From: Escherichia phage T7
Sequence record: MZ375256.1
Reading direction: 5' to 3' (one strand)
DNA: 37,111 nt
Positions 1-37,111 of the stretch are shown piece after piece. Numbering within the stretch: position 1 is the stretch's first letter; each line of letters begins with the position of its first letter. The translations under genes were made by a program, and so were the position numbers. Below the pieces are notes generated by a model. It searched no databases and was not told the DNA's origin. It saw nothing but the letters and a program-made list of their open reading frames with translations.

Positions 1-140
1 TCTCACAGTGTACGGACCTAAAGTTCCCCATAGGGGTACCTAAAGCCCAGCCAATCACCTAAAGTCAACCTTCGGTTGACCTTGAGGGTTCCCTAAGGGT
101 TTGTCTTTGGGTGTTACCTTGAGTGTCTCTCTGTGTCCCT
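1..140. repeat. Left direct terminal repeat (identical copy at 36972-37111)
   Basis: First 140 nt are repeated exactly at the last 140 nt of the window; T7-type terminal redundancy. Confidence 0.95.
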
Positions 141-154
141 ACCTGTAACAGTCT

Positions 155-318
155 CCTAAAGTATCCTCCTAAAGTCACCTCCTAACGTCCATCCTAAAGC
201 CAACACCTAAAGCCAACACCTAAAGACCCATCAAGTCAACGCCTATCTTAAAGTTTAAACATAAAGACCAGACCTAAAGACCAGACCTAAAGACACTACA
301 TAAAGACCAGACCTAAAG
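155..318. repeat. Array of short CCTAAAG-type repeats adjacent to the left terminal repeat
   Basis: Multiple spaced copies of cctaaag / acctaaag / ataaag visible between 155 and 318. Confidence 0.8.
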
Positions 319-367
319 ACGCCTTGTTGTTAGCCATAAAGTGATAACCTTTAATCATTGTCTTTAT

Positions 368-390
368 TAATACAACTCACTATAGGGAGA
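368..390 (+). promoter_or_regulatory. T7 RNAP promoter phiOL
   Basis: taatacaactcactatagggaga, one mismatch to the 23-bp T7 consensus. Confidence 0.8.
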
Positions 391-441
391 GACAACTTAA
401 AGAGACTTAAAAGATTAATTTAAAATTTATCAAAAAGAGTA

Positions 442-478
442 TTGACTTAAAGTCTAACCTATAGGATACTTACAGCCA
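442..478 (+). promoter_or_regulatory. Host sigma70 promoter A1
   Basis: -35 ttgact (442-447), 17-bp spacer, -10 gatact (465-470). Confidence 0.85.
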
Positions 479-568
479 TCGAGAGGGACACGGCGAATAG
501 CCATCCCAATCGACACCGGGGTCAACCGGATAAGTAGACAGCCTGATAAGTCGCACGAAAAACAGGTA

Positions 569-606
569 TTGACAACATGAAGTAACATGCAGTAAGATAC
601 AAATCG
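569..606 (+). promoter_or_regulatory. Host sigma70 promoter A2
   Basis: -35 ttgaca (569-574), 18-bp spacer, -10 taagat (593-598). Confidence 0.85.
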
Positions 607-693
607 CTAGGTAACACTAGCAGCGTCAACCGGGCGCACAGTGCCTTCTAGGTGACTTAAGCGCACCACGGCACATAAGGTGAAACAAAACGG

Positions 694-730
694 TTGACAA
701 CATGAAGTAAACACGGTACGATGTACCACA
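694..730 (+). promoter_or_regulatory. Host sigma70 promoter A3
   Basis: -35 ttgaca (694-699), 17-bp spacer, -10 tacgat (717-722). Confidence 0.85.
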
Positions 731-842
731 TGAAACGACAGTGAGTCACCACACTGAAAGGTGATGCGGTCTAACGAAACCTGACCTAAGACGCTCTTTA
801 ACAATCTGGTAAATAGCTCTTGAGTGCATGACTAGCGGATAA

Positions 843-876
843 CTCAAGGGTATCGCAAGGTGCCCTTTATGATATT
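843..876 (+). promoter_or_regulatory. RNase III processing hairpin R0.3
   Basis: aagggtatcgcaaggtgccctttatgat: inverted repeat plus the tttatgat motif shared with other copies. Confidence 0.6.
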
Positions 877-904
877 CACTAATAACTGCACGAGGTAACA
901 CAAG

Positions 905-1258
905 ATGGCTATGTCTAACATGACTTACAACAACGTTTTCGACCACGCTTACGAAATGCTGAAAGAAAACATCCGTTATGATGACATCCGTGACACTGAT
1001 GACCTGCACGATGCTATTCACATGGCTGCCGATAATGCAGTTCCGCACTACTACGCTGACATCTTTAGCGTAATGGCAAGTGAGGGCATTGACCTTGAGT
1101 TCGAAGACTCTGGTCTGATGCCTGACACCAAGGACGTAATCCGCATCCTGCAAGCGCGTATCTATGAGCAATTAACGATTGACCTCTGGGAAGACGCAGA
1201 AGACTTGCTCAATGAATACTTGGAGGAAGTCGAGGAGTACGAGGAGGATGAAGAGTAA
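905..1258 (+). CDS. 0.3: Ocr, DNA-mimic inhibitor of type I restriction-modification
   Basis: 117-aa ORF, acidic C-terminus, sequence recognisable as T7 gp0.3. Confidence 0.95.
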
Positions 1259-1389
1259 TGTCTACTACCAACGTGCAATACGGTCTGACCGCTCAAACTG
1301 TACTTTTCTATAGCGACATGGGGCGGCGTGGCATAGACGAAAGGAAAAGGTTAAAGCCAAGAAACTCGCCGCACTTGAACAGGCACTAG
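1258..1389 (+). pseudogene. 0.4: 43-codon fusion ORF: gene 0.4 N-terminus joined to residual 3' sequence of the 0.6 region
   Basis: ATG overlaps ocr stop (taATG); first 21 codons read [21 protein letters not shown] as in gp0.4, then unrelated tail; genes 0.5/0.6 absent. Confidence 0.55.
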
Positions 1390-1437
1390 CCAACACACTG
1401 AACGCTATCTCATAACGAACATAAAGGACACAATGCA

Positions 1438-2517
1438 ATGAACATTACCGACATCATGAACGCTATCGACGCAATCAAAGCACTGCCAATCTGTGAACTT
1501 GACAAGCGTCAAGGTATGCTTATCGACTTACTGGTCGAGATGGTCAACAGCGAGACGTGTGATGGCGAGCTAACCGAACTAAATCAGGCACTTGAGCATC
1601 AAGATTGGTGGACTACCTTGAAGTGTCTCACGGCTGACGCAGGGTTCAAGATGCTCGGTAATGGTCACTTCTCGGCTGCTTATAGTCACCCGCTGCTACC
1701 TAACAGAGTGATTAAGGTGGGCTTTAAGAAAGAGGATTCAGGCGCAGCCTATACCGCATTCTGCCGCATGTATCAGGGTCGTCCTGGTATCCCTAACGTC
1801 TACGATGTACAGCGCCACGCTGGATGCTATACGGTGGTACTTGACGCACTTAAGGATTGCGAGCGTTTCAACAATGATGCCCATTATAAATACGCTGAGA
1901 TTGCAAGCGACATCATTGATTGCAATTCGGATGAGCATGATGAGTTAACTGGATGGGATGGTGAGTTTGTTGAAACTTGTAAACTAATCCGCAAGTTCTT
2001 TGAGGGCATCGCCTCATTCGACATGCATAGCGGGAACATCATGTTCTCAAATGGAGACGTACCATACATCACCGACCCGGTATCATTCTCGCAGAAGAAA
2101 GACGGTGGCGCATTCAGCATCGACCCTGAGGAACTCATCAAGGAAGTCGAGGAAGTCGCACGACAGAAAGAAATTGACCGCGCTAAGGCCCGTAAAGAAC
2201 GTCACGAGGGGCGCTTAGAGGCACGCAGATTCAAACGTCGCAACCGCAAGGCACGTAAAGCACACAAAGCTAAGCGCGAAAGAATGCTTGCTGCGTGGCG
2301 ATGGGCTGAACGTCAAGAACGGCGTAACCATGAGGTAGCTGTAGATGTACTAGGAAGAACCAATAACGCTATGCTCTGGGTCAACATGTTCTCTGGGGAC
2401 TTTAAGGCGCTTGAGGAACGAATCGCGCTGCACTGGCGTAATGCTGACCGGATGGCTATCGCTAATGGTCTTACGCTCAACATTGATAAGCAACTTGACG
2501 CAATGTTAATGGGCTGA
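1438..2517 (+). CDS. 0.7: Ser/Thr protein kinase and host transcription shutoff protein
   Basis: 359-aa ORF, basic K/R-rich C-terminal half, T7 gp0.7. Confidence 0.95.
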
Positions 2518-2530
2518 TAGTCTTATCTTA

Positions 2531-2570
2531 CAGGTCATCTGCGGGTGGCCTGAATAGGTACGATTTACTA
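2531..2570 (+). promoter_or_regulatory. RNase III processing hairpin R1
   Basis: caggtcatctgcgggtggcctgaataggtacgat, related to the other hairpin copies. Confidence 0.45.
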
Positions 2571-2587
2571 ACTGGAAGAGGCACTAA

Positions 2588-5239
2588 ATGAACACGATTA
2601 ACATCGCTAAGAACGACTTCTCTGACATCGAACTGGCTGCTATCCCGTTCAACACTCTGGCTGACCATTACGGTGAGCGTTTAGCTCGCGAACAGTTGGC
2701 CCTTGAGCATGAGTCTTACGAGATGGGTGAAGCACGCTTCCGCAAGATGTTTGAGCGTCAACTTAAAGCTGGTGAGGTTGCGGATAACGCTGCCGCCAAG
2801 CCTCTCATCACTACCCTACTCCCTAAGATGATTGCACGCATCAACGACTGGTTTGAGGAAGTGAAAGCTAAGCGCGGCAAGCGCCCGACAGCCTTCCAGT
2901 TCCTGCAAGAAATCAAGCCGGAAGCCGTAGCGTACATCACCATTAAGACCACTCTGGCTTGCCTAACCAGTGCTGACAATACAACCGTTCAGGCTGTAGC
3001 AAGCGCAATCGGTCGGGCCATTGAGGACGAGGCTCGCTTCGGTCGTATCCGTGACCTTGAAGCTAAGCACTTCAAGAAAAACGTTGAGGAACAACTCAAC
3101 AAGCGCGTAGGGCACGTCTACAAGAAAGCATTTATGCGAGTTGTCGAGGCTGACATGCTCTCTAAGGGTCTACTCGGTGGCGAGGCGTGGTCTTCGTGGC
3201 ATAAGGAAGACTCTATTCATGTAGGAGTACGCTGCATCGAGATGCTCATTGAGTCAACCGGAATGGTTAGCTTACACCGCCAAAATGCTGGCGTAGTAGG
3301 TCAAGACTCTGAGACTATCGAACTCGCACCTGAATACGCTGAGGCTATCGCAACCCGTGCAGGTGCGCTGGCTGGCATCTCTCCGATGTTCCAACCTTGC
3401 GTAGTTCCTCCTAAGCCGTGGACTGGCATTACTGGTGGTGGCTATTGGGCTAACGGTCGTCGTCCTCTGGCGCTGGTGCGTACTCACAGTAAGAAAGCAC
3501 TGATGCGCTACGAAGACGTTTACATGCCTGAGGTGTACAAAGCGATTAACATTGCGCAAAACACCGCATGGAAAATCAACAAGAAAGTCCTAGCGGTCGC
3601 CAACGTAATCACCAAGTGGAAGCATTGTCCGGTCGAGGACATCCCTGCGATTGAGCGTGAAGAACTCCCGATGAAACCGGAAGACATCGACATGAATCCT
3701 GAGGCTCTCACCGCGTGGAAACGTGCTGCCGCTGCTGTGTACCGCAAGGACAAGGCTCGCAAGTCTCGCCGTATCAGCCTTGAGTTCATGCTTGAGCAAG
3801 CCAATAAGTTTGCTAACCATAAGGCCATCTGGTTCCCTTACAACATGGACTGGCGCGGTCGTGTTTACGCTGTGTCAATGTTCAACCCGCAAGGTAACGA
3901 TATGACCAAAGGACTGCTTACGCTGGCGAAAGGTAAACCAATCGGTAAGGAAGGTTACTACTGGCTGAAAATCCACGGTGCAAACTGTGCGGGTGTCGAT
4001 AAGGTTCCGTTCCCTGAGCGCATCAAGTTCATTGAGGAAAACCACGAGAACATCATGGCTTGCGCTAAGTCTCCACTGGAGAACACTTGGTGGGCTGAGC
4101 AAGATTCTCCGTTCTGCTTCCTTGCGTTCTGCTTTGAGTACGCTGGGGTACAGCACCACGGCCTGAGCTATAACTGCTCCCTTCCGCTGGCGTTTGACGG
4201 GTCTTGCTCTGGCATCCAGCACTTCTCCGCGATGCTCCGAGATGAGGTAGGTGGTCGCGCGGTTAACTTGCTTCCTAGTGAAACCGTTCAGGACATCTAC
4301 GGGATTGTTGCTAAGAAAGTCAACGAGATTCTACAAGCAGACGCAATCAATGGGACCGATAACGAAGTAGTTACCGTGACCGATGAGAACACTGGTGAAA
4401 TCTCTGAGAAAGTCAAGCTGGGCACTAAGGCACTGGCTGGTCAATGGCTGGCTTACGGTGTTACTCGCAGTGTGACTAAGCGTTCAGTCATGACGCTGGC
4501 TTACGGGTCCAAAGAGTTCGGCTTCCGTCAACAAGTGCTGGAAGATACCATTCAGCCAGCTATTGATTCCGGCAAGGGTCTGATGTTCACTCAGCCGAAT
4601 CAGGCTGCTGGATACATGGCTAAGCTGATTTGGGAATCTGTGAGCGTGACGGTGGTAGCTGCGGTTGAAGCAATGAACTGGCTTAAGTCTGCTGCTAAGC
4701 TGCTGGCTGCTGAGGTCAAAGATAAGAAGACTGGAGAGATTCTTCGCAAGCGTTGCGCTGTGCATTGGGTAACTCCTGATGGTTTCCCTGTGTGGCAGGA
4801 ATACAAGAAGCCTATTCAGACGCGCTTGAACCTGATGTTCCTCGGTCAGTTCCGCTTACAGCCTACCATTAACACCAACAAAGATAGCGAGATTGATGCA
4901 CACAAACAGGAGTCTGGTATCGCTCCTAACTTTGTACACAGCCAAGACGGTAGCCACCTTCGTAAGACTGTAGTGTGGGCACACGAGAAGTACGGAATCG
5001 AATCTTTTGCACTGATTCACGACTCCTTCGGTACCATTCCGGCTGACGCTGCGAACCTGTTCAAAGCAGTGCGCGAAACTATGGTTGACACATATGAGTC
5101 TTGTGATGTACTGGCTGATTTCTACGACCAGTTCGCTGACCAGTTGCACGAGTCTCAATTGGACAAAATGCCAGCACTTCCGGCTAAAGGTAACTTGAAC
5201 CTCCGTGACATCTTAGAGTCGGACTTCGCGTTCGCGTAA
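2588..5239 (+). CDS. 1: T7 DNA-directed RNA polymerase
   Basis: 883-aa ORF, recognisable as single-subunit T7 RNAP (starts MNTINIAKNDFSDIELAAIPFNTLADHYGERLAREQLALEHESYEMGEARFRKMFERQLK...). Confidence 0.98.
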   Translation: MNTINIAKNDFSDIELAAIPFNTLADHYGERLAREQLALEHESYEMGEARFRKMFERQLKAGEVADNAAAKPLITTLLPKMIARINDWFEEVKAKRGKRPTAFQFLQEIKPEAVAYITIKTTLACLTSADNTTVQAVASAIGRAIEDEARFGRIRDLEAKHFKKNVEEQLNKRVGHVYKKAFMRVVEADMLSKGLLGGEAWSSWHKEDSIHVGVRCIEMLIESTGMVSLHRQNAGVVGQDSETIELAPEYAEAIATRAGALAGISPMFQPCVVPPKPWTGITGGGYWANGRRPLALVRTHSKKALMRYEDVYMPEVYKAINIAQNTAWKINKKVLAVANVITKWKHCPVEDIPAIEREELPMKPEDIDMNPEALTAWKRAAAAVYRKDKARKSRRISLEFMLEQANKFANHKAIWFPYNMDWRGRVYAVSMFNPQGNDMTKGLLTLAKGKPIGKEGYYWLKIHGANCAGVDKVPFPERIKFIEENHENIMACAKSPLENTWWAEQDSPFCFLAFCFEYAGVQHHGLSYNCSLPLAFDGSCSGIQHFSAMLRDEVGGRAVNLLPSETVQDIYGIVAKKVNEILQADAINGTDNEVVTVTDENTGEISEKVKLGTKALAGQWLAYGVTRSVTKRSVMTLAYGSKEFGFRQQVLEDTIQPAIDSGKGLMFTQPNQAAGYMAKLIWESVSVTVVAAVEAMNWLKSAAKLLAAEVKDKKTGEILRKRCAVHWVTPDGFPVWQEYKKPIQTRLNLMFLGQFRLQPTINTNKDSEIDAHKQESGIAPNFVHSQDGSHLRKTVVWAHEKYGIESFALIHDSFGTIPADAANLFKAVRETMVDTYESCDVLADFYDQFADQLHESQLDKMPALPAKGNLNLRDILESDFAFA

Positions 5240-7427: not shown

Positions 7428-8009
7428 TGGGACTGTTAGATGGTGAAGCCTGGGAAAAAGAAAACCCGCCAGTACAAGCAACTGGGTGTATAGCTTGCTT
7501 AGAGAAAGATGACCGTTATCCACACACCTGTAACAAAGGAGCTAACGATATGACCGAACGTGAACAAGAGATGATCATTAAGTTGATAGACAATAATGAA
7601 GGTCGCCCAGATGATTTGAATGGCTGCGGTATTCTCTGCTCCAATGTCCCTTGCCACCTCTGCCCCGCAAATAACGATCAAAAGATAACCTTAGGTGAAA
7701 TCCGAGCGATGGACCCACGTAAACCACATCTGAATAAACCTGAGGTAACTCCTACAGATGACCAGCCTTCCGCTGAGACAATCGAAGGTGTCACTAAGCC
7801 TTCCCACTACATGCTGTTTGACGACATTGAGGCTATCGAAGTGATTGCTCGTTCAATGACCGTTGAGCAGTTCAAGGGATACTGCTTCGGTAACATCTTA
7901 AAGTACAGACTACGTGCTGGTAAGAAGTCAGAGTTAGCGTACTTAGAGAAAGACCTAGCGAAAGCAGACTTCTATAAAGAACTCTTTGAGAAACATAAGG
8001 ATAAATGTT

Positions 8010-9117: not shown

Positions 9118-9537
9118 GTGGAACTGCGGGAGAAAATCCTTGAGCGAATCAAGGTGACTTCCTCTGGGTGTTGGGAGTGGCAGGGCGCTACGAACAATAA
9201 AGGGTACGGGCAGGTGTGGTGCAGCAATACCGGAAAGGTTGTCTACTGTCATCGCGTAATGTCTAATGCTCCGAAAGGTTCTACCGTCCTGCACTCCTGT
9301 GATAATCCATTATGTTGTAACCCTGAACACCGTTCCATAGGAACTCCAAAAGAGAACTCCACTGACATGGTAAATAAGGGTCGCTCACACAAGGGGTATA
9401 AACTTTCAGACGAAGACGTAATGGCAATCATGGAGTCCAGCGAGTCCAATGTATCCTTAGCTCGCACCTATGGTGTCTCCCAACAGACTATTTGTGATAT
9501 ACGCAAAGGGAGGCGACATGGCAGGTTACGGCGCTAA
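9118..9537 (+). CDS. 2.8: HNH endonuclease-family protein
   Basis: 139-aa ORF with GTG start; Cys/His motif CHRVMSN...HSCDNPLCCNPEH; clear paralog of the 17460-17852 ORF. Confidence 0.85.
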   Translation: MELREKILERIKVTSSGCWEWQGATNNKGYGQVWCSNTGKVVYCHRVMSNAPKGSTVLHSCDNPLCCNPEHRSIGTPKENSTDMVNKGRSHKGYKLSDEDVMAIMESSESNVSLARTYGVSQQTICDIRKGRRHGRLRR

Positions 9538-10422: not shown

Positions 10423-12234
<1,812 letters not shown>

Positions 12235-12302
12235 CAGGATTCTTGACAGTTGTTTCATATGAAGAGATTGTTAAGTCACGATAATCAATAGGAGAAATCA
12301 AT

Positions 12303-28206: not shown

Positions 28207-31200
28207 ATGGATAAGTACGATAAGAACGTACCAAGTGATTATGATGGTCTGTTCCAAAAGGCTGCTGATGCCAACGGGGTCTCTTATGACCTTTTACGTA
28301 AAGTCGCTTGGACAGAATCACGATTTGTGCCTACAGCAAAATCTAAGACTGGACCATTAGGCATGATGCAATTTACCAAGGCAACCGCTAAGGCCCTCGG
28401 TCTGCGAGTTACCGATGGTCCAGACGACGACCGACTGAACCCTGAGTTAGCTATTAATGCTGCCGCTAAGCAACTTGCAGGTCTGGTAGGGAAGTTTGAT
28501 GGCGATGAACTCAAAGCTGCCCTTGCGTACAACCAAGGCGAGGGACGCTTGGGTAATCCACAACTTGAGGCGTACTCTAAGGGAGACTTCGCATCAATCT
28601 CTGAGGAGGGACGTAACTACATGCGTAACCTTCTGGATGTTGCTAAGTCACCTATGGCTGGACAGTTGGAAACTTTTGGTGGCATAACCCCAAAGGGTAA
28701 AGGCATTCCGGCTGAGGTAGGATTGGCTGGAATTGGTCACAAGCAGAAAGTAACACAGGAACTTCCTGAGTCCACAAGTTTTGACGTTAAGGGTATCGAA
28801 CAGGAGGCTACGGCGAAACCATTCGCCAAGGACTTTTGGGAGACCCACGGAGAAACACTTGACGAGTACAACAGTCGTTCAACCTTCTTCGGATTCAAAA
28901 ATGCTGCCGAAGCTGAACTCTCCAACTCAGTCGCTGGGATGGCTTTCCGTGCTGGTCGTCTCGATAATGGTTTTGATGTGTTTAAAGACACCATTACGCC
29001 GACTCGCTGGAACTCTCACATCTGGACTCCAGAGGAGTTAGAGAAGATTCGAACAGAGGTTAAGAACCCTGCGTACATCAACGTTGTAACTGGTGGTTCC
29101 CCTGAGAACCTCGATGACCTCATTAAATTGGCTAACGAGAACTTTGAGAATGACTCCCGCGCTGCCGAGGCTGGCCTAGGTGCCAAACTGAGTGCTGGTA
29201 TTATTGGTGCTGGTGTGGACCCGCTTAGCTATGTTCCTATGGTCGGTGTCACTGGTAAGGGCTTTAAGTTAATCAATAAGGCTCTTGTAGTTGGTGCCGA
29301 AAGTGCTGCTCTGAACGTTGCATCCGAAGGTCTCCGTACCTCCGTAGCTGGTGGTGACGCAGACTATGCGGGTGCTGCCTTAGGTGGCTTTGTGTTTGGC
29401 GCAGGCATGTCTGCAATCAGTGACGCTGTAGCTGCTGGACTGAAACGCAGTAAACCAGAAGCTGAGTTCGACAATGAGTTCATCGGTCCTATGATGCGAT
29501 TGGAAGCCCGTGAGACAGCACGAAACGCCAACTCTGCGGACCTCTCTCGGATGAACACTGAGAACATGAAGTTTGAAGGTGAACATAATGGTGTCCCTTA
29601 TGAGGACTTACCAACAGAGAGAGGTGCCGTGGTGTTACATGATGGCTCCGTTCTAAGTGCAAGCAACCCAATCAACCCTAAGACTCTAAAAGAGTTCTCC
29701 GAGGTTGACCCTGAGAAGGCTGCGCGAGGAATCAAACTGGCTGGGTTCACCGAGATTGGCTTGAAGACCTTGGGGTCTGACGATGCTGACATCCGTAGAG
29801 TGGCTATCGACCTCGTTCGCTCTCCTACTGGTATGCAGTCTGGTGCCTCAGGTAAGTTCGGTGCAACAGCTTCTGACATCCATGAGAGACTTCATGGTAC
29901 TGACCAGCGTACTTATAATGACTTGTACAAAGCAATGTCTGACGCTATGAAAGACCCTGAGTTCTCTACTGGCGGCGCTAAGATGTCCCGTGAAGAAACT
30001 CGATACACTATCTACCGTAGAGCGGCACTAGCTATTGAGCGTCCAGAACTACAGAAGGCACTCACTCCGTCTGAGAGAATCGTTATGGACATCATTAAGC
30101 GTCACTTTGACACCAAGCGTGAACTTATGGAAAACCCAGCAATATTCGGTAACACAAAGGCTGTGAGTATCTTCCCTGAGAGTCGCCACAAAGGTACTTA
30201 CGTTCCTCACGTATATGACCGTCATGCCAAGGCGCTGATGATTCAACGCTACGGTGCCGAAGGTTTGCAGGAAGGGATTGCCCGCTCATGGATGAACAGC
30301 TACGTCTCCAGACCTGAGGTCAAGGCCAGAGTCGATGAGATGCTTAAGGAATTACACGGGGTGAAGGAAGTAACACCAGAGATGGTAGAGAAGTACGCTA
30401 TGGATAAGGCTTATGGTATCTCCCACTCAGACCAGTTCACCAACAGTTCCATAATAGAAGAGAACATTGAGGGCTTAGTAGGTATCGAGAATAACTCATT
30501 CCTTGAGGCACGTAACTTGTTTGATTCGGACCTATCCATCACTATGCCAGACGGACAGCAATTCTCAGTGAATGACCTAAGGGACTTCGATATGTTCCGC
30601 ATCATGCCAGCGTATGACCGCTGTGTCAATAGTGACATCGCCATCATGGGGTCTACTGGTAAAACCACTAAGGAACTTAAGGATGAGATTTTGGCTCTCA
30701 AAGCGAAAGCTGAGGGAGACGGTAAGAAGACTGGCGAGGTACATGCTTTAATGGATACCGTTAAGATTCTTACTGGTCGTGCTAGACGCAATCAGGACAC
30801 TGTGTGGGAAACCTCACTGCGTGCCATCAATGACCTAGGGTTCTTCGCTAAGAACGCCTACATGGGTGCTCAGAACATTACGGAGATTGCTGGGATGATT
30901 GTCACTGGTAACGTTCGTGCTCTAGGGCATGGTATCCCAATTCTGCGTGATACACTCTACAAGTCTAAACCAGTTTCAGCTAAGGAACTCAAGGAACTCC
31001 ATGCGTCTCTGTTCGGGAAGGAGGTGGACCAGTTGATTCGGCCTAAACGTGCTGACATTGTGCAGCGCCTAAGGGAAGCAACTGATACCGGACCTGCCGT
31101 GGCGAACATCGTAGGGACCTTGAAGTATTCAACACAGGAACTGGCTGCTCGCTCTCCGTGGACTAAGCTACTGAACGGAACCACTAACTACCTTCTGGAT

Positions 31201-32163
31201 GCTGCGCGTCAAGGTATGCTTGGGGATGTTATTAGTGCCACCCTAACAGGTAAGACTACCCGCTGGGAGAAAGAAGGCTTCCTTCGTGGTGCCTCCGTAA
31301 CTCCTGAGCAGATGGCTGGCATCAAGTCTCTCATCAAGGAACATATGGTACGCGGTGAGGACGGGAAGTTTACCGTTAAGGACAAGCAAGCGTTCTCTAT
31401 GGACCCACGGGCTATGGACTTATGGAGACTGGCTGACAAGGTAGCTGATGAGGCAATGCTGCGTCCACATAAGGTGTCCTTACAGGATTCCCATGCGTTC
31501 GGAGCACTAGGTAAGATGGTTATGCAGTTTAAGTCTTTCACTATCAAGTCCCTTAACTCTAAGTTCCTGCGAACCTTCTATGATGGATACAAGAACAACC
31601 GAGCGATTGACGCTGCGCTGAGCATCATCACCTCTATGGGTCTCGCTGGTGGTTTCTATGCTATGGCTGCACACGTCAGAGCATACGCTCTGCCTAAGGA
31701 GAAACGTAAGGAGTACTTGGAGCGTGCACTGGACCCAACCATGATTGCCCACGCTGCGTTATCTCGTAGTTCTCAATTGGGTGTTCCTTTGGCTATGGTT
31801 GACCTAGTTGGTGGTGTTTTAGGGTTCGAGTCCTCCAAGATGGCTCGCTCTACGATTCTACCTAAGGACACCGTGAAGGAACGTGACCCAAACAAACCGT
31901 ACACCTCTAGAGAGGTAATGGGCGCTATGGGTTCAAACCTTCTGGAACAGATGCCTTCGGCTGGCTTTGTGGCTAACGTAGGGGCTACCTTAATGAATGC
32001 TGCTGGCGTGGTCAACTCACCTAATAAAGCAACCGAGCAGGACTTCATGACTGGTCTTATGAACTCCACAAAAGAGTTAGTACCGAACGACCCATTGACT
32101 CAACAGCTTGTGTTGAAGATTTATGAGGCGAACGGTGTTAACTTGAGGGAGCGTAGGAAATAA
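28207..32163 (+). CDS. 16: Internal core protein gp16 with N-terminal lytic transglycosylase domain
   Basis: 1318-aa ORF; SLT-like segment TESRFVPTAKSKTGPLGMMQFTKATAKALGL near the N-terminus. Confidence 0.95.
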   Translation: MDKYDKNVPSDYDGLFQKAADANGVSYDLLRKVAWTESRFVPTAKSKTGPLGMMQFTKATAKALGLRVTDGPDDDRLNPELAINAAAKQLAGLVGKFDGDELKAALAYNQGEGRLGNPQLEAYSKGDFASISEEGRNYMRNLLDVAKSPMAGQLETFGGITPKGKGIPAEVGLAGIGHKQKVTQELPESTSFDVKGIEQEATAKPFAKDFWETHGETLDEYNSRSTFFGFKNAAEAELSNSVAGMAFRAGRLDNGFDVFKDTITPTRWNSHIWTPEELEKIRTEVKNPAYINVVTGGSPENLDDLIKLANENFENDSRAAEAGLGAKLSAGIIGAGVDPLSYVPMVGVTGKGFKLINKALVVGAESAALNVASEGLRTSVAGGDADYAGAALGGFVFGAGMSAISDAVAAGLKRSKPEAEFDNEFIGPMMRLEARETARNANSADLSRMNTENMKFEGEHNGVPYEDLPTERGAVVLHDGSVLSASNPINPKTLKEFSEVDPEKAARGIKLAGFTEIGLKTLGSDDADIRRVAIDLVRSPTGMQSGASGKFGATASDIHERLHGTDQRTYNDLYKAMSDAMKDPEFSTGGAKMSREETRYTIYRRAALAIERPELQKALTPSERIVMDIIKRHFDTKRELMENPAIFGNTKAVSIFPESRHKGTYVPHVYDRHAKALMIQRYGAEGLQEGIARSWMNSYVSRPEVKARVDEMLKELHGVKEVTPEMVEKYAMDKAYGISHSDQFTNSSIIEENIEGLVGIENNSFLEARNLFDSDLSITMPDGQQFSVNDLRDFDMFRIMPAYDRCVNSDIAIMGSTGKTTKELKDEILALKAKAEGDGKKTGEVHALMDTVKILTGRARRNQDTVWETSLRAINDLGFFAKNAYMGAQNITEIAGMIVTGNVRALGHGIPILRDTLYKSKPVSAKELKELHASLFGKEVDQLIRPKRADIVQRLREATDTGPAVANIVGTLKYSTQELAARSPWTKLLNGTTNYLLDAARQGMLGDVISATLTGKTTRWEKEGFLRGASVTPEQMAGIKSLIKEHMVRGEDGKFTVKDKQAFSMDPRAMDLWRLADKVADEAMLRPHKVSLQDSHAFGALGKMVMQFKSFTIKSLNSKFLRTFYDGYKNNRAIDAALSIITSMGLAGGFYAMAAHVRAYALPKEKRKEYLERALDPTMIAHAALSRSSQLGVPLAMVDLVGGVLGFESSKMARSTILPKDTVKERDPNKPYTSREVMGAMGSNLLEQMPSAGFVANVGATLMNAAGVVNSPNKATEQDFMTGLMNSTKELVPNDPLTQQLVLKIYEANGVNLRERRK

Positions 32164-34528: not shown

Positions 34529-34786
34529 ATGCTAGAATTTTTACGTAAGCTAATCCCTTGGGTTCTCGCTGGGATGCTATTCGGGTTAGGATGGCATCTA
34601 GGGTCAGACTCAATGGACGCTAAATGGAAACAGGAGGTACACAATGAGTACGTTAAGAGAGTTGAGCCCAGAAGGGTGACGCATGGATTCGTGCGTTACA
34701 GGATACTATTCGTGAACTGCAACGTAAGTAGGAAATCAAGTAAGGAGGCAATGTGTCTACTCAATCCAATCGTAATGCGCTCGTAG
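34529..34786 (+). pseudogene. 18.5: Truncated and frameshifted i-spanin gene 18.5 (Rz-like); embedded o-spanin gene 18.7 (Rz1-like) reduced to an 11-codon stub at 34644-34679
   Basis: First 46 codons MLEFLRKLIPWVLAGMLFGLGWHLGSDSMDAKWKQEVHNEYVKRVE match gp18.5, then an out-of-frame tail PRRVTHGFVRYRILF... running into gene 19; about 229 bp missing relative to the canonical 143-aa gene. Confidence 0.75.
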
Positions 34787-36513
34787 TGGCGCAACTGAAA
34801 GGAGACTTCGTGGCGTTCCTATTCGTCTTATGGAAGGCGCTAACCCTACCGGTGCCCACTAAGTGTCAGATTGACATGGCTAAGGTGCTGGCGAATGGAG
34901 ACAACAAGAAGTTCATCTTACAGGCTTTCCGTGGTATCGGTAAGTCGTTCATCACATGTGCGTTCGTTGTGTGGTCCTTATGGAGAGACCCTCAGTTGAA
35001 GATACTTATCGTATCAGCCTCTAAGGAGCGTGCAGACGCTAACTCCATCTTTATTAAGAACATCATTGACCTGCTGCCATTCCTATCTGAGTTAAAGCCA
35101 AGACCCGGACAGCGTGACTCGGTAATCAGCTTTGATGTAGGCCCAGCCAATCCTGACCACTCTCCTAGTGTGAAATCAGTAGGTATCACTGGTCAGTTAA
35201 CTGGTAGCCGTGCTGACATTATCATTGCGGATGACGTTGAGATTCCGTCTAACAGCGCAACTATGGGTGCCCGTGAGAAGCTATGGACTCTGGTTCAGGA
35301 GTTCGCTGCGTTACTTAAACCGCTGCCTTCCTCTCGCGTTATCTACCTTGGTACACCTCAGACAGAGATGACTCTCTATAAGGAACTTGAGGATAACCGT
35401 GGGTACACAACCATTATCTGGCCTGCTCTGTACCCAAGGACACGTGAAGAGAACCTCTATTACTCACAGCGTCTTGCTCCTATGTTACGCGCTGAGTACG
35501 ATGAGAACCCTGAGGCACTTGCTGGGACTCCAACAGACCCAGTGCGCTTTGACCGTGATGACCTGCGCGAGCGTGAGTTGGAATACGGTAAGGCTGGCTT
35601 TACGCTACAGTTCATGCTTAACCCTAACCTTAGTGATGCCGAGAAGTACCCGCTGAGGCTTCGTGACGCTATCGTAGCGGCCTTAGACTTAGAGAAGGCC
35701 CCAATGCATTACCAGTGGCTTCCGAACCGTCAGAACATCATTGAGGACCTTCCTAACGTTGGCCTTAAGGGTGATGACCTGCATACGTACCACGATTGTT
35801 CCAACAACTCAGGTCAGTACCAACAGAAGATTCTGGTCATTGACCCTAGTGGTCGCGGTAAGGACGAAACAGGTTACGCTGTGCTGTACACACTGAACGG
35901 TTACATCTACCTTATGGAAGCTGGAGGTTTCCGTGATGGCTACTCCGATAAGACCCTTGAGTTACTCGCTAAGAAGGCAAAGCAATGGGGAGTCCAGACG
36001 GTTGTCTACGAGAGTAACTTCGGTGACGGTATGTTCGGTAAGGTATTCAGTCCTATCCTTCTTAAACACCACAACTGTGCGATGGAAGAGATTCGTGCCC
36101 GTGGTATGAAAGAGATGCGTATTTGCGATACCCTTGAGCCAGTCATGCAGACTCACCGCCTTGTAATTCGTGATGAGGTCATTAGGGCCGACTACCAGTC
36201 CGCTCGTGACGTAGACGGTAAGCATGACGTTAAGTACTCGTTGTTCTACCAGATGACCCGTATCACTCGTGAGAAAGGCGCTCTGGCTCATGATGACCGA
36301 TTGGATGCCCTTGCGTTAGGCATTGAGTATCTCCGTGAGTCCATGCAGTTGGATTCCGTTAAGGTCGAGGGTGAAGTACTTGCTGACTTCCTTGAGGAAC
36401 ACATGATGCGTCCTACGGTTGCTGCTACGCATATCATTGAGATGTCTGTGGGAGGAGTTGATGTGTACTCTGAGGACGATGAGGGTTACGGTACGTCTTT
36501 CATTGAGTGGTGA
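34753..36513 (+). CDS. 19: Terminase large subunit (DNA maturase B)
   Basis: 586-aa ORF with Walker A-like GIGKS. Confidence 0.95.
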
Positions 36514-36771: not shown

Positions 36772-36819
36772 ATGTTCCGCTTATTGTTGAACCTACTGCG
36801 GCATAGAGTCAAGTCCTAA
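36772..36819 (+). pseudogene. 19.5: Gene 19.5 truncated to 15 codons
   Basis: RBS gggaggag then ATG; reads MFRLLLNLLRHRVKS* whereas the canonical gene is about 49 codons; size accounting implies about 189 bp missing here. Confidence 0.5.
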
Positions 36820-36971: not shown

Positions 36972-37111
36972 TCTCACAGTGTACGGACCTAAAGTTCCCC
37001 ATAGGGGTACCTAAAGCCCAGCCAATCACCTAAAGTCAACCTTCGGTTGACCTTGAGGGTTCCCTAAGGGTTTGTCTTTGGGTGTTACCTTGAGTGTCTC
37101 TCTGTGTCCCT
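36972..37111. repeat. Right direct terminal repeat (identical to 1-140)
   Basis: Exact 140-nt match to the window start. Confidence 0.95.

Follow-up and report, generated by a model that had tools for sequence, protein, structure and literature searches.

A 563-bp early-region deletion at an imperfect direct repeat in a laboratory genome-reduced phage T7

We identified the interruption of the early region between genes 0.3 and 0.7 as a 563-bp deletion relative to wild-type phage T7. In all likelihood it arose in the laboratory without having been designed, by way of an imperfect 12-nt direct repeat, and most probably during CiPGr passage with a Cas9 spacer library. The genome analysed here in its entirety (37,111 bp, hereafter the window) is that of a laboratory genome-reduced phage T7 whose 563-bp deletion has already been deposited in GenBank, and its missing early genes are therefore not to be read as natural variation. 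The route of formation, recombination at short direct repeats, has long been known, and the deletion is an ordinary by-product of it. Food for further thought is offered by one mildly interesting residue, the pair of pure junction alleles found at the imperfect repeat.

Extent of the deletion and the deposited clone series

The window aligns to the T7 reference (V01146) over its whole length, and identity exceeds 99.6% in all long blocks but the 5' one, which stands at 98% because of indels in the terminal repeat and mismatches at the junction. Seven internal deletions, together with the shortened terminal repeat, account for its length of 37,111 bp as against the 39,937 bp of the reference (Table 1). 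In the early region, window positions 1-1321 correspond to reference positions 1-1341 and window 1321 onward corresponds to reference 1904 onward; the absent interval is reference 1342-1904 or, equivalently, 1341-1903. A preliminary description of this DNA had proposed a deletion from wild-type T7 with its junction near 1320-1324, and the alignment agrees on both counts: the reference does not have this contiguous sequence, and the junction falls on a G shared by the two flanks. Both ends of the deletion are intragenic and four annotated ORFs are touched, in that gene 0.4 loses codons 22-51, genes 0.5 and 0.6A are lost whole and gene 0.6B loses its first 89 codons. The minor E. coli promoter B (reference 1514) also lies within the lost interval. 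So does the R0.5 RNase III stem-loop, annotated in the T7.1 record (DQ100054) at reference 1428-1479 and cut near 1469, which forms a strong predicted hairpin in the reference and is missing from the window. The earlier statement that 0.5, most of 0.6 and the R0.5 site had been removed therefore stands and can be made more specific, the loss from 0.6 being all of 0.6A and most of 0.6B.

Table 1. Features of the early region and positions of all internal deletions in the window (ref, position in V01146)
Feature	Window position	Strand	Remarks
Gene 0.3 (ocr), intact	905..1258	+	Zero differences from the reference in this stretch
GAGGAGG, Shine-Dalgarno-like sequence	1241..1247	+	Native 0.4 initiation region; ref 1261-1267; 10 nt upstream of ATG 1258
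Chimeric 43-codon ORF	1258-1389	+	gp0.4 residues 1-21, C-terminal 22 residues of gp0.6B, 0.6B stop
Gene 0.4-derived segment, codons 1-21	1258..1320	+	Ref 1278-1340, by comparison with the reference
Deletion junction	1321	.	Single G common to ref 1341 and ref 1904; 1-nt ambiguity
Surviving hybrid repeat copy	1321..1332	.	Wholly right-hand (0.6B) type, GGGCGGCGTGGC
Gene 0.6B-derived segment, last 22 codons and TAG	1321..1389	+	Ref 1904-1972, by comparison with the reference
0.6B-0.7 intergenic region, unchanged	1390..1437	+	Holds the 0.7 ribosome-binding site AAGGA (1424-1428)
Gene 0.7 (protein kinase), intact	1438..2517	+	
Gene 1.4 deletion	7024/7025		156 bp, exactly the CDS (ref 7608-7763); 0 nt microhomology
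Gene 3.8 deletion	10514/10515		292 bp
Deletion from the end of 4.2 through 4.7	12240-12246		1019 bp; 7-nt microhomology TTCTTGA
Gene 5.3 deletion	14432/14433		338 bp
Gene 18.7 deletion	34666/34667		229 bp
Gene 19.5 deletion	36803-36811		189 bp; 9-nt repeat ATAGAGTCA

Apart from the internal deletions, the terminal repeat measures 140 bp instead of 160 bp (window 1-140 and 36972-37111) and carries the same changes at both ends, namely an 18-bp deletion at a GGGTT direct repeat (reference 99-116) and two single-base losses in homopolymer runs; in the early clone T7_30L it is full-length. Two promoters are altered at position +1: phiOL (window 385, A to G), which acquires the consensus TATAGGGAGA, and phi10, the promoter of the capsid gene (window 20516, G to T), which acquires TATATGGAGA. 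About 20 further substitutions relative to V01146 (window 9332-9333, 17183, 17219, 30622-31784, 32875 and elsewhere) lie in genes 1, 2.8, 5, 7.3, 11, 12, 16, 17 and 19.

A 563-bp deletion in this position recurs in 41 GenBank records, all deposited as Escherichia phage T7; every record that was opened bears the title "Mutant Escherichia phage T7 clone T7_nnL/S" or similar. This clone naming, together with the sampling described, fits the CRISPR/Cas9 genome-reduction study of Yuan et al. (2022; PMC9825161). According to its main text, T7 was passaged on E. coli MG1655 with Cas9 and a plasmid library, and large and small plaques were sampled every 10 transfers. The CiPGr library is described there as spacers with 2 x 50-bp repair templates against genes not excluded as known essential, in two designs: cassette-gene, which removes whole genes, and cassette-100, which removes 100 bp. 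The same text lists undesigned "large fragment" losses of gp0.3-0.6, gp4.3-4.7 and gp19.5, some of them attributed to CRISPR escape. In clone T7_10L, from transfer 10, the 0.4-0.6 region is intact; the deletion therefore arose during the experiment. The 563-bp form is present to the end of the series, where the clone names are inferred from accession order.

These records also bear on whether the junction could stem from faulty assembly, from a natural T7-like variant or from a deletion inherited from an old stock. We regard all of these as scarcely credible, because a junction of the same size is carried by 41 separately deposited genomes and because exact-pattern scans of IMG/VR, GTDB genomes and JGI metagenomes found neither junction allele (see below). 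Moreover, the flanks are identical to T7, and the full region is found in T7_10L of the very same series.

The imperfect repeat and its two junction alleles

The breakpoints lie in a 12-nt direct repeat (reference 1341-1352, GTGCGCTGTGGC; reference 1904-1915, GGGCGGCGTGGC), the left copy of which occupies codons 22-25 of gene 0.4, while the right copy is found 22 codons before the end of 0.6B. A short direct repeat had been suggested in the preliminary description as something to look for at the breakpoints; one is indeed present, but it is imperfect, the copies agreeing at 9 of 12 positions in register. In a simulation over the same interval, 979 of 200,000 randomly placed junctions (0.49%) reached this level of in-register agreement. 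A repeat at both endpoints with one copy kept is the pattern of a deletion between short direct repeats. At each of the three positions where the copies differ (1322, 1326 and 1327) the window has the base of the right-hand copy, which places the crossover at the leftmost shared G, where exact homology amounts to 1 nt only.

A sister allele carries a deletion of the same size with a repeat copy of the left-hand type (GTGCGCTGTGGC), its crossover lying at the opposite end of the repeat, within the 5-nt stretch GTGGC. The right-type junction, identical to that of the window, is found in 31 GenBank records (MZ375237...292) and the left-type junction in 10 (seven MZ records and OL964739-41); among the listed records there is no mosaic junction. 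With clone names partly inferred from accession order, the right-type junction first appears at transfer 30 and the left-type junction at transfer 150.

We propose that a break, made by Cas9 or otherwise, would have fallen between the repeat copies in the 0.4-0.6 interval, and that repair by annealing or illegitimate recombination between the imperfect copies would have left a single hybrid copy. Annealing of the 12-nt repeat would create a heteroduplex with three mismatches, and its segregation or co-repair could produce a junction of either pure type; the window would then be the all-right form of the resolved heteroduplex and the sister clones the all-left form. That the two alleles represent the two strands of one such annealing intermediate is a tentative suggestion, which we hold to be somewhat doubtful. 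Independent reuse of this weak repeat is at least as likely, because of the later first appearance of the left-type allele (transfer 150, against transfer 30 for the right type). An annealing-and-trimming model would also more naturally yield the left-type (GTGGC) allele than the allele of the window. Each alternative has its own implication. A single intermediate would mean that T7 break repair anneals a poor repeat and passes the heteroduplex to replication without mismatch correction, and independent use on two occasions would make the repeat a deletion hotspot.

The alleles matter as well for the possibility that the deletion was designed, that is, copied in from the homology template of a CiPGr plasmid once Cas9 had cut. 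Other deletions in the window do have a designed look, such as that of gene 1.4, which takes out precisely the CDS, and the 2 x 50-bp templates of CiPGr would provide the means. Nonetheless, neither end of the 563-bp deletion lies at a gene boundary, and an event of 563 bp over four annotated ORFs, with its ends in a repeat, resembles neither a cassette with 50-bp arms at gene boundaries nor a 100-bp internal cassette, both free of microhomology. Furthermore, the two alleles differ at the three polymorphic positions of the repeat, and one synthetic template therefore cannot account for both. Together with the statement in the main text of PMC9825161 that large-fragment losses here were not designed, this makes design highly improbable. 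The preferred reading, an undesigned deletion through the imperfect repeat, also agrees with the other junctions in the same genome. The presumed designed deletions (1.4, 5.3, 3.8 and 18.7) lie at or near gene boundaries and have no microhomology, whereas the three junctions that match the undesigned fragments of the paper (0.4-0.6B, 4.2-4.7 and 19.5) all lie in short direct repeats. This contrast within one genome points to phage escape from multiplexed Cas9 via short, even imperfect, repeats.

Two of the companion deletions alter neighbouring reading frames. The 3.8 deletion (window 10486-10535) leaves the start codon of gene 3.8 in frame with gene 4A, and initiation there would extend the N-terminus of the primase-helicase by 16 residues. 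In the case of the 18.7 deletion (window 34529-34790), gene 18.5 (Rz-like spanin) is frameshifted after residue 46 because 229 bp is not a multiple of three, and both spanin components would thus appear to be lost.

The chimeric reading frame and the remaining early region

The two gene remnants at the junction form one ORF, whose ATG (1258) overlaps the stop TAA of gene 0.3 (1256-1258) in the sequence TAATG. The preliminary description had given its coordinates and peptide sequence correctly, and had seen in it a gp0.4 N-terminus of 21 codons fused to residual 3' sequence from the 0.6 region; comparison with the reference upholds this and assigns the tail to the gp0.6B frame. Residues 1-21 of the 43-aa translation are identical to residues 1-21 of T7 gp0.4. 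The part after the marked junction reads GRRGIDERKRLKPRNSPHLNRH and ends at the native 0.6B stop (reference 1972); these 22 residues agree throughout with the C-terminus of gp0.6B and are strongly basic. PHROG recovers both origins of the chimera: the profile of the gp0.4 family (phrog_7202) is matched over 2-25 of its 50 positions, and that of the gp0.6B family (phrog_8393) over 88-111 of its 111. Pfam gave no family for the chimera, gp0.4, gp0.5 or gp0.6A.

Neither parent protein survives in the fusion. Full-length gp0.4 has about 51 aa in two antiparallel helices, of which the chimera keeps residues 1-21 only, and gp0.6B has 111 aa, made up of the 0.6A body and a frameshifted extension, of which only the last 22 residues remain. 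Of the residues of gp0.4 that contact FtsZ (V15, V22, W28, M32, L35 and Y39), the chimera has V15 alone; it has G at position 22, and the 0.6B tail stands in place of residues 28-39. In published mutagenesis, V22A, W28A, M32A, L35A and Y39A each abolish the toxicity of gp0.4, and W28L and L35P abolish its binding to FtsZ (PMC13423816). With the required residues lost or changed, these data back the earlier claim that the deletion removes 0.4 function.

The preliminary description called the peptide expressed; to judge from the sequence, the unaltered start region of gene 0.4 makes its translation plausible. One might go further and suppose that the peptide has a function for which it was selected, for instance a partial gp0.4 activity or a role as a new basic peptide: the start region is intact, and the fusion runs into a genuine coding frame that supplies the strongly basic tail. 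However, an in-frame fusion of this kind is expected by chance for one frame in three, the junction residues differ in the sister allele (VRCG in place of GRRG), a 676-bp deletion in other clones of the series leaves just a 14-aa remnant, and the residues for FtsZ binding are absent (PMC13423816). For these reasons we consider function very improbable, and the peptide is most likely a passive, non-functional by-product. The ORF is, moreover, unannotated in all 41 records with the 563-bp deletion.

Beyond the peptide, the deletion has consequences for the early region as a whole. We infer that the strain is without both cytoskeleton inhibitors, since gp0.4 is cited as an inhibitor of FtsZ and gp0.6 as an inhibitor of MreB (PMC5624674). 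With the R0.5 processing site lost, genes 0.3 and 0.7 are expected to lie on a single early mRNA; the RNase III-processed message from R0.3 to R1 would then carry 0.3, the chimeric ORF and 0.7. Folding across the junction (window 1255-1445) was no better than that of shuffled sequences (z = -0.16), and no new stable structure replacing R0.5 was found in this segment. An Rfam scan of window 1-3000 (E <= 1) gave zero matches; this region, with the junction in it, is therefore without a curated RNA family. A scan for promoters and terminators in window 850-2650 found no site created by the junction. Users of such strains should be aware that gp0.4, gp0.6 and R0.5 are absent and that an unannotated 43-codon fusion ORF is present. 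Additionally, escape from defences that sense gp0.4, such as CapRel(Ebc), is predicted.

Selection and comparison with known deletions

Within the deleted interval we counted 49 complete candidate SpCas9 sites, among them all sites in 0.5 and 0.6A. One deletion would, on this count, confer resistance to many members of the library simultaneously. The deletion would have spread because it frees three or four targeted genes of many Cas9 sites at once and at little cost, and a shorter early region may also have been helpful in rapid passage.

Two further deletions of the early region, likewise undesigned and at repeats, are found elsewhere in the series. A 676-bp deletion lies at an imperfect 9-nt repeat (CTGACCGCT/CTGAACGCT; 425-495 of L009, MZ375239) in clones from transfers 40-100, and leaves residues 1-10 of gp0.4 followed by four further residues. 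A 1480-bp deletion between the copies of a perfect 13-nt repeat, one in 0.3 and one in 0.7 (395-407 of L013-L015; MZ375235, 236 and 238), occurs in clones from transfers 20-30 and fuses 0.3 in frame with the C-terminal part of 0.7, an ORF annotated there as "protein kinase". With deletions of 563, 676 and 1480 bp in one series, the early region was therefore lost independently at least three times.

This recurrence invites the question of whether selection was mainly general adaptation to rapid passage and not escape from Cas9. A shorter early region could give faster genome entry and a shorter cycle, with dispensable early proteins left unmade. Three different deletions of this non-essential interval had appeared by transfer 40, the 563-bp form lasted to the end of the series (with the caveat on final clone names given above), and the removed genes are dispensable in the laboratory, as indicated by the main text of PMC9825161 and partly by general knowledge of T7. 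Nonetheless, gp0.4 has been reported to aid the growth of T7 in dividing cells (PMC5624674), and the main text of PMC9825161 describes most gene losses as detrimental and wild-type T7 as near optimal. Cas9 pressure on 0.4, 0.5 and 0.6 is, by comparison, a direct and sufficient selective agent. We therefore consider it unlikely that passage adaptation was the main force, although Cas9 escape and passage adaptation are compatible and not mutually exclusive.

Spontaneous deletions of the T7 early region between short direct repeats are reportedly a classical finding, and deletion between direct repeats is said to be stimulated by double-strand breaks. The deletion described here likewise removes non-essential early sequence, has its endpoints in a short direct repeat and keeps one copy, and in both cases the event was probably set off by a double-strand break between the repeats. 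It differs in that its repeat is imperfect (9/12) and in that exact homology at the crossover is limited to 1 nt. Literature searches on the endpoints of the classical T7 deletions ("D111") and on microhomology in the escape of T7 from Cas9 found nothing usable.

The closest known system is the CiPGr mutant collection itself (MZ375233-293 and OL964739-41). The junction of the window is identical in 31 of the deposited clones, and the window shares with the collection the companion deletions of 1.4, 3.8, 4.2-4.7, 5.3, 18.7 and 19.5. The main text of PMC9825161, which calls the losses in this region not designed, names them "gp0.3-0.6", whereas gene 0.3 is intact in the window; this label may mean the 1480-bp deletion and not the 563-bp one. 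Neither the anatomy of the junction nor the chimeric ORF is described in that main text. A further comparison is offered by the gene 0.4 mutants of T7 that escape CapRel(Ebc) (PMC13423816). There too, gp0.4 is truncated or altered and residues for FtsZ binding are lost. However, those escapers carry point mutations or a 1-nt frameshift and were selected under a toxin-antitoxin defence, whereas the deletion in the window spans 563 bp, belongs to a Cas9 setting and takes 0.5 and 0.6 with it.
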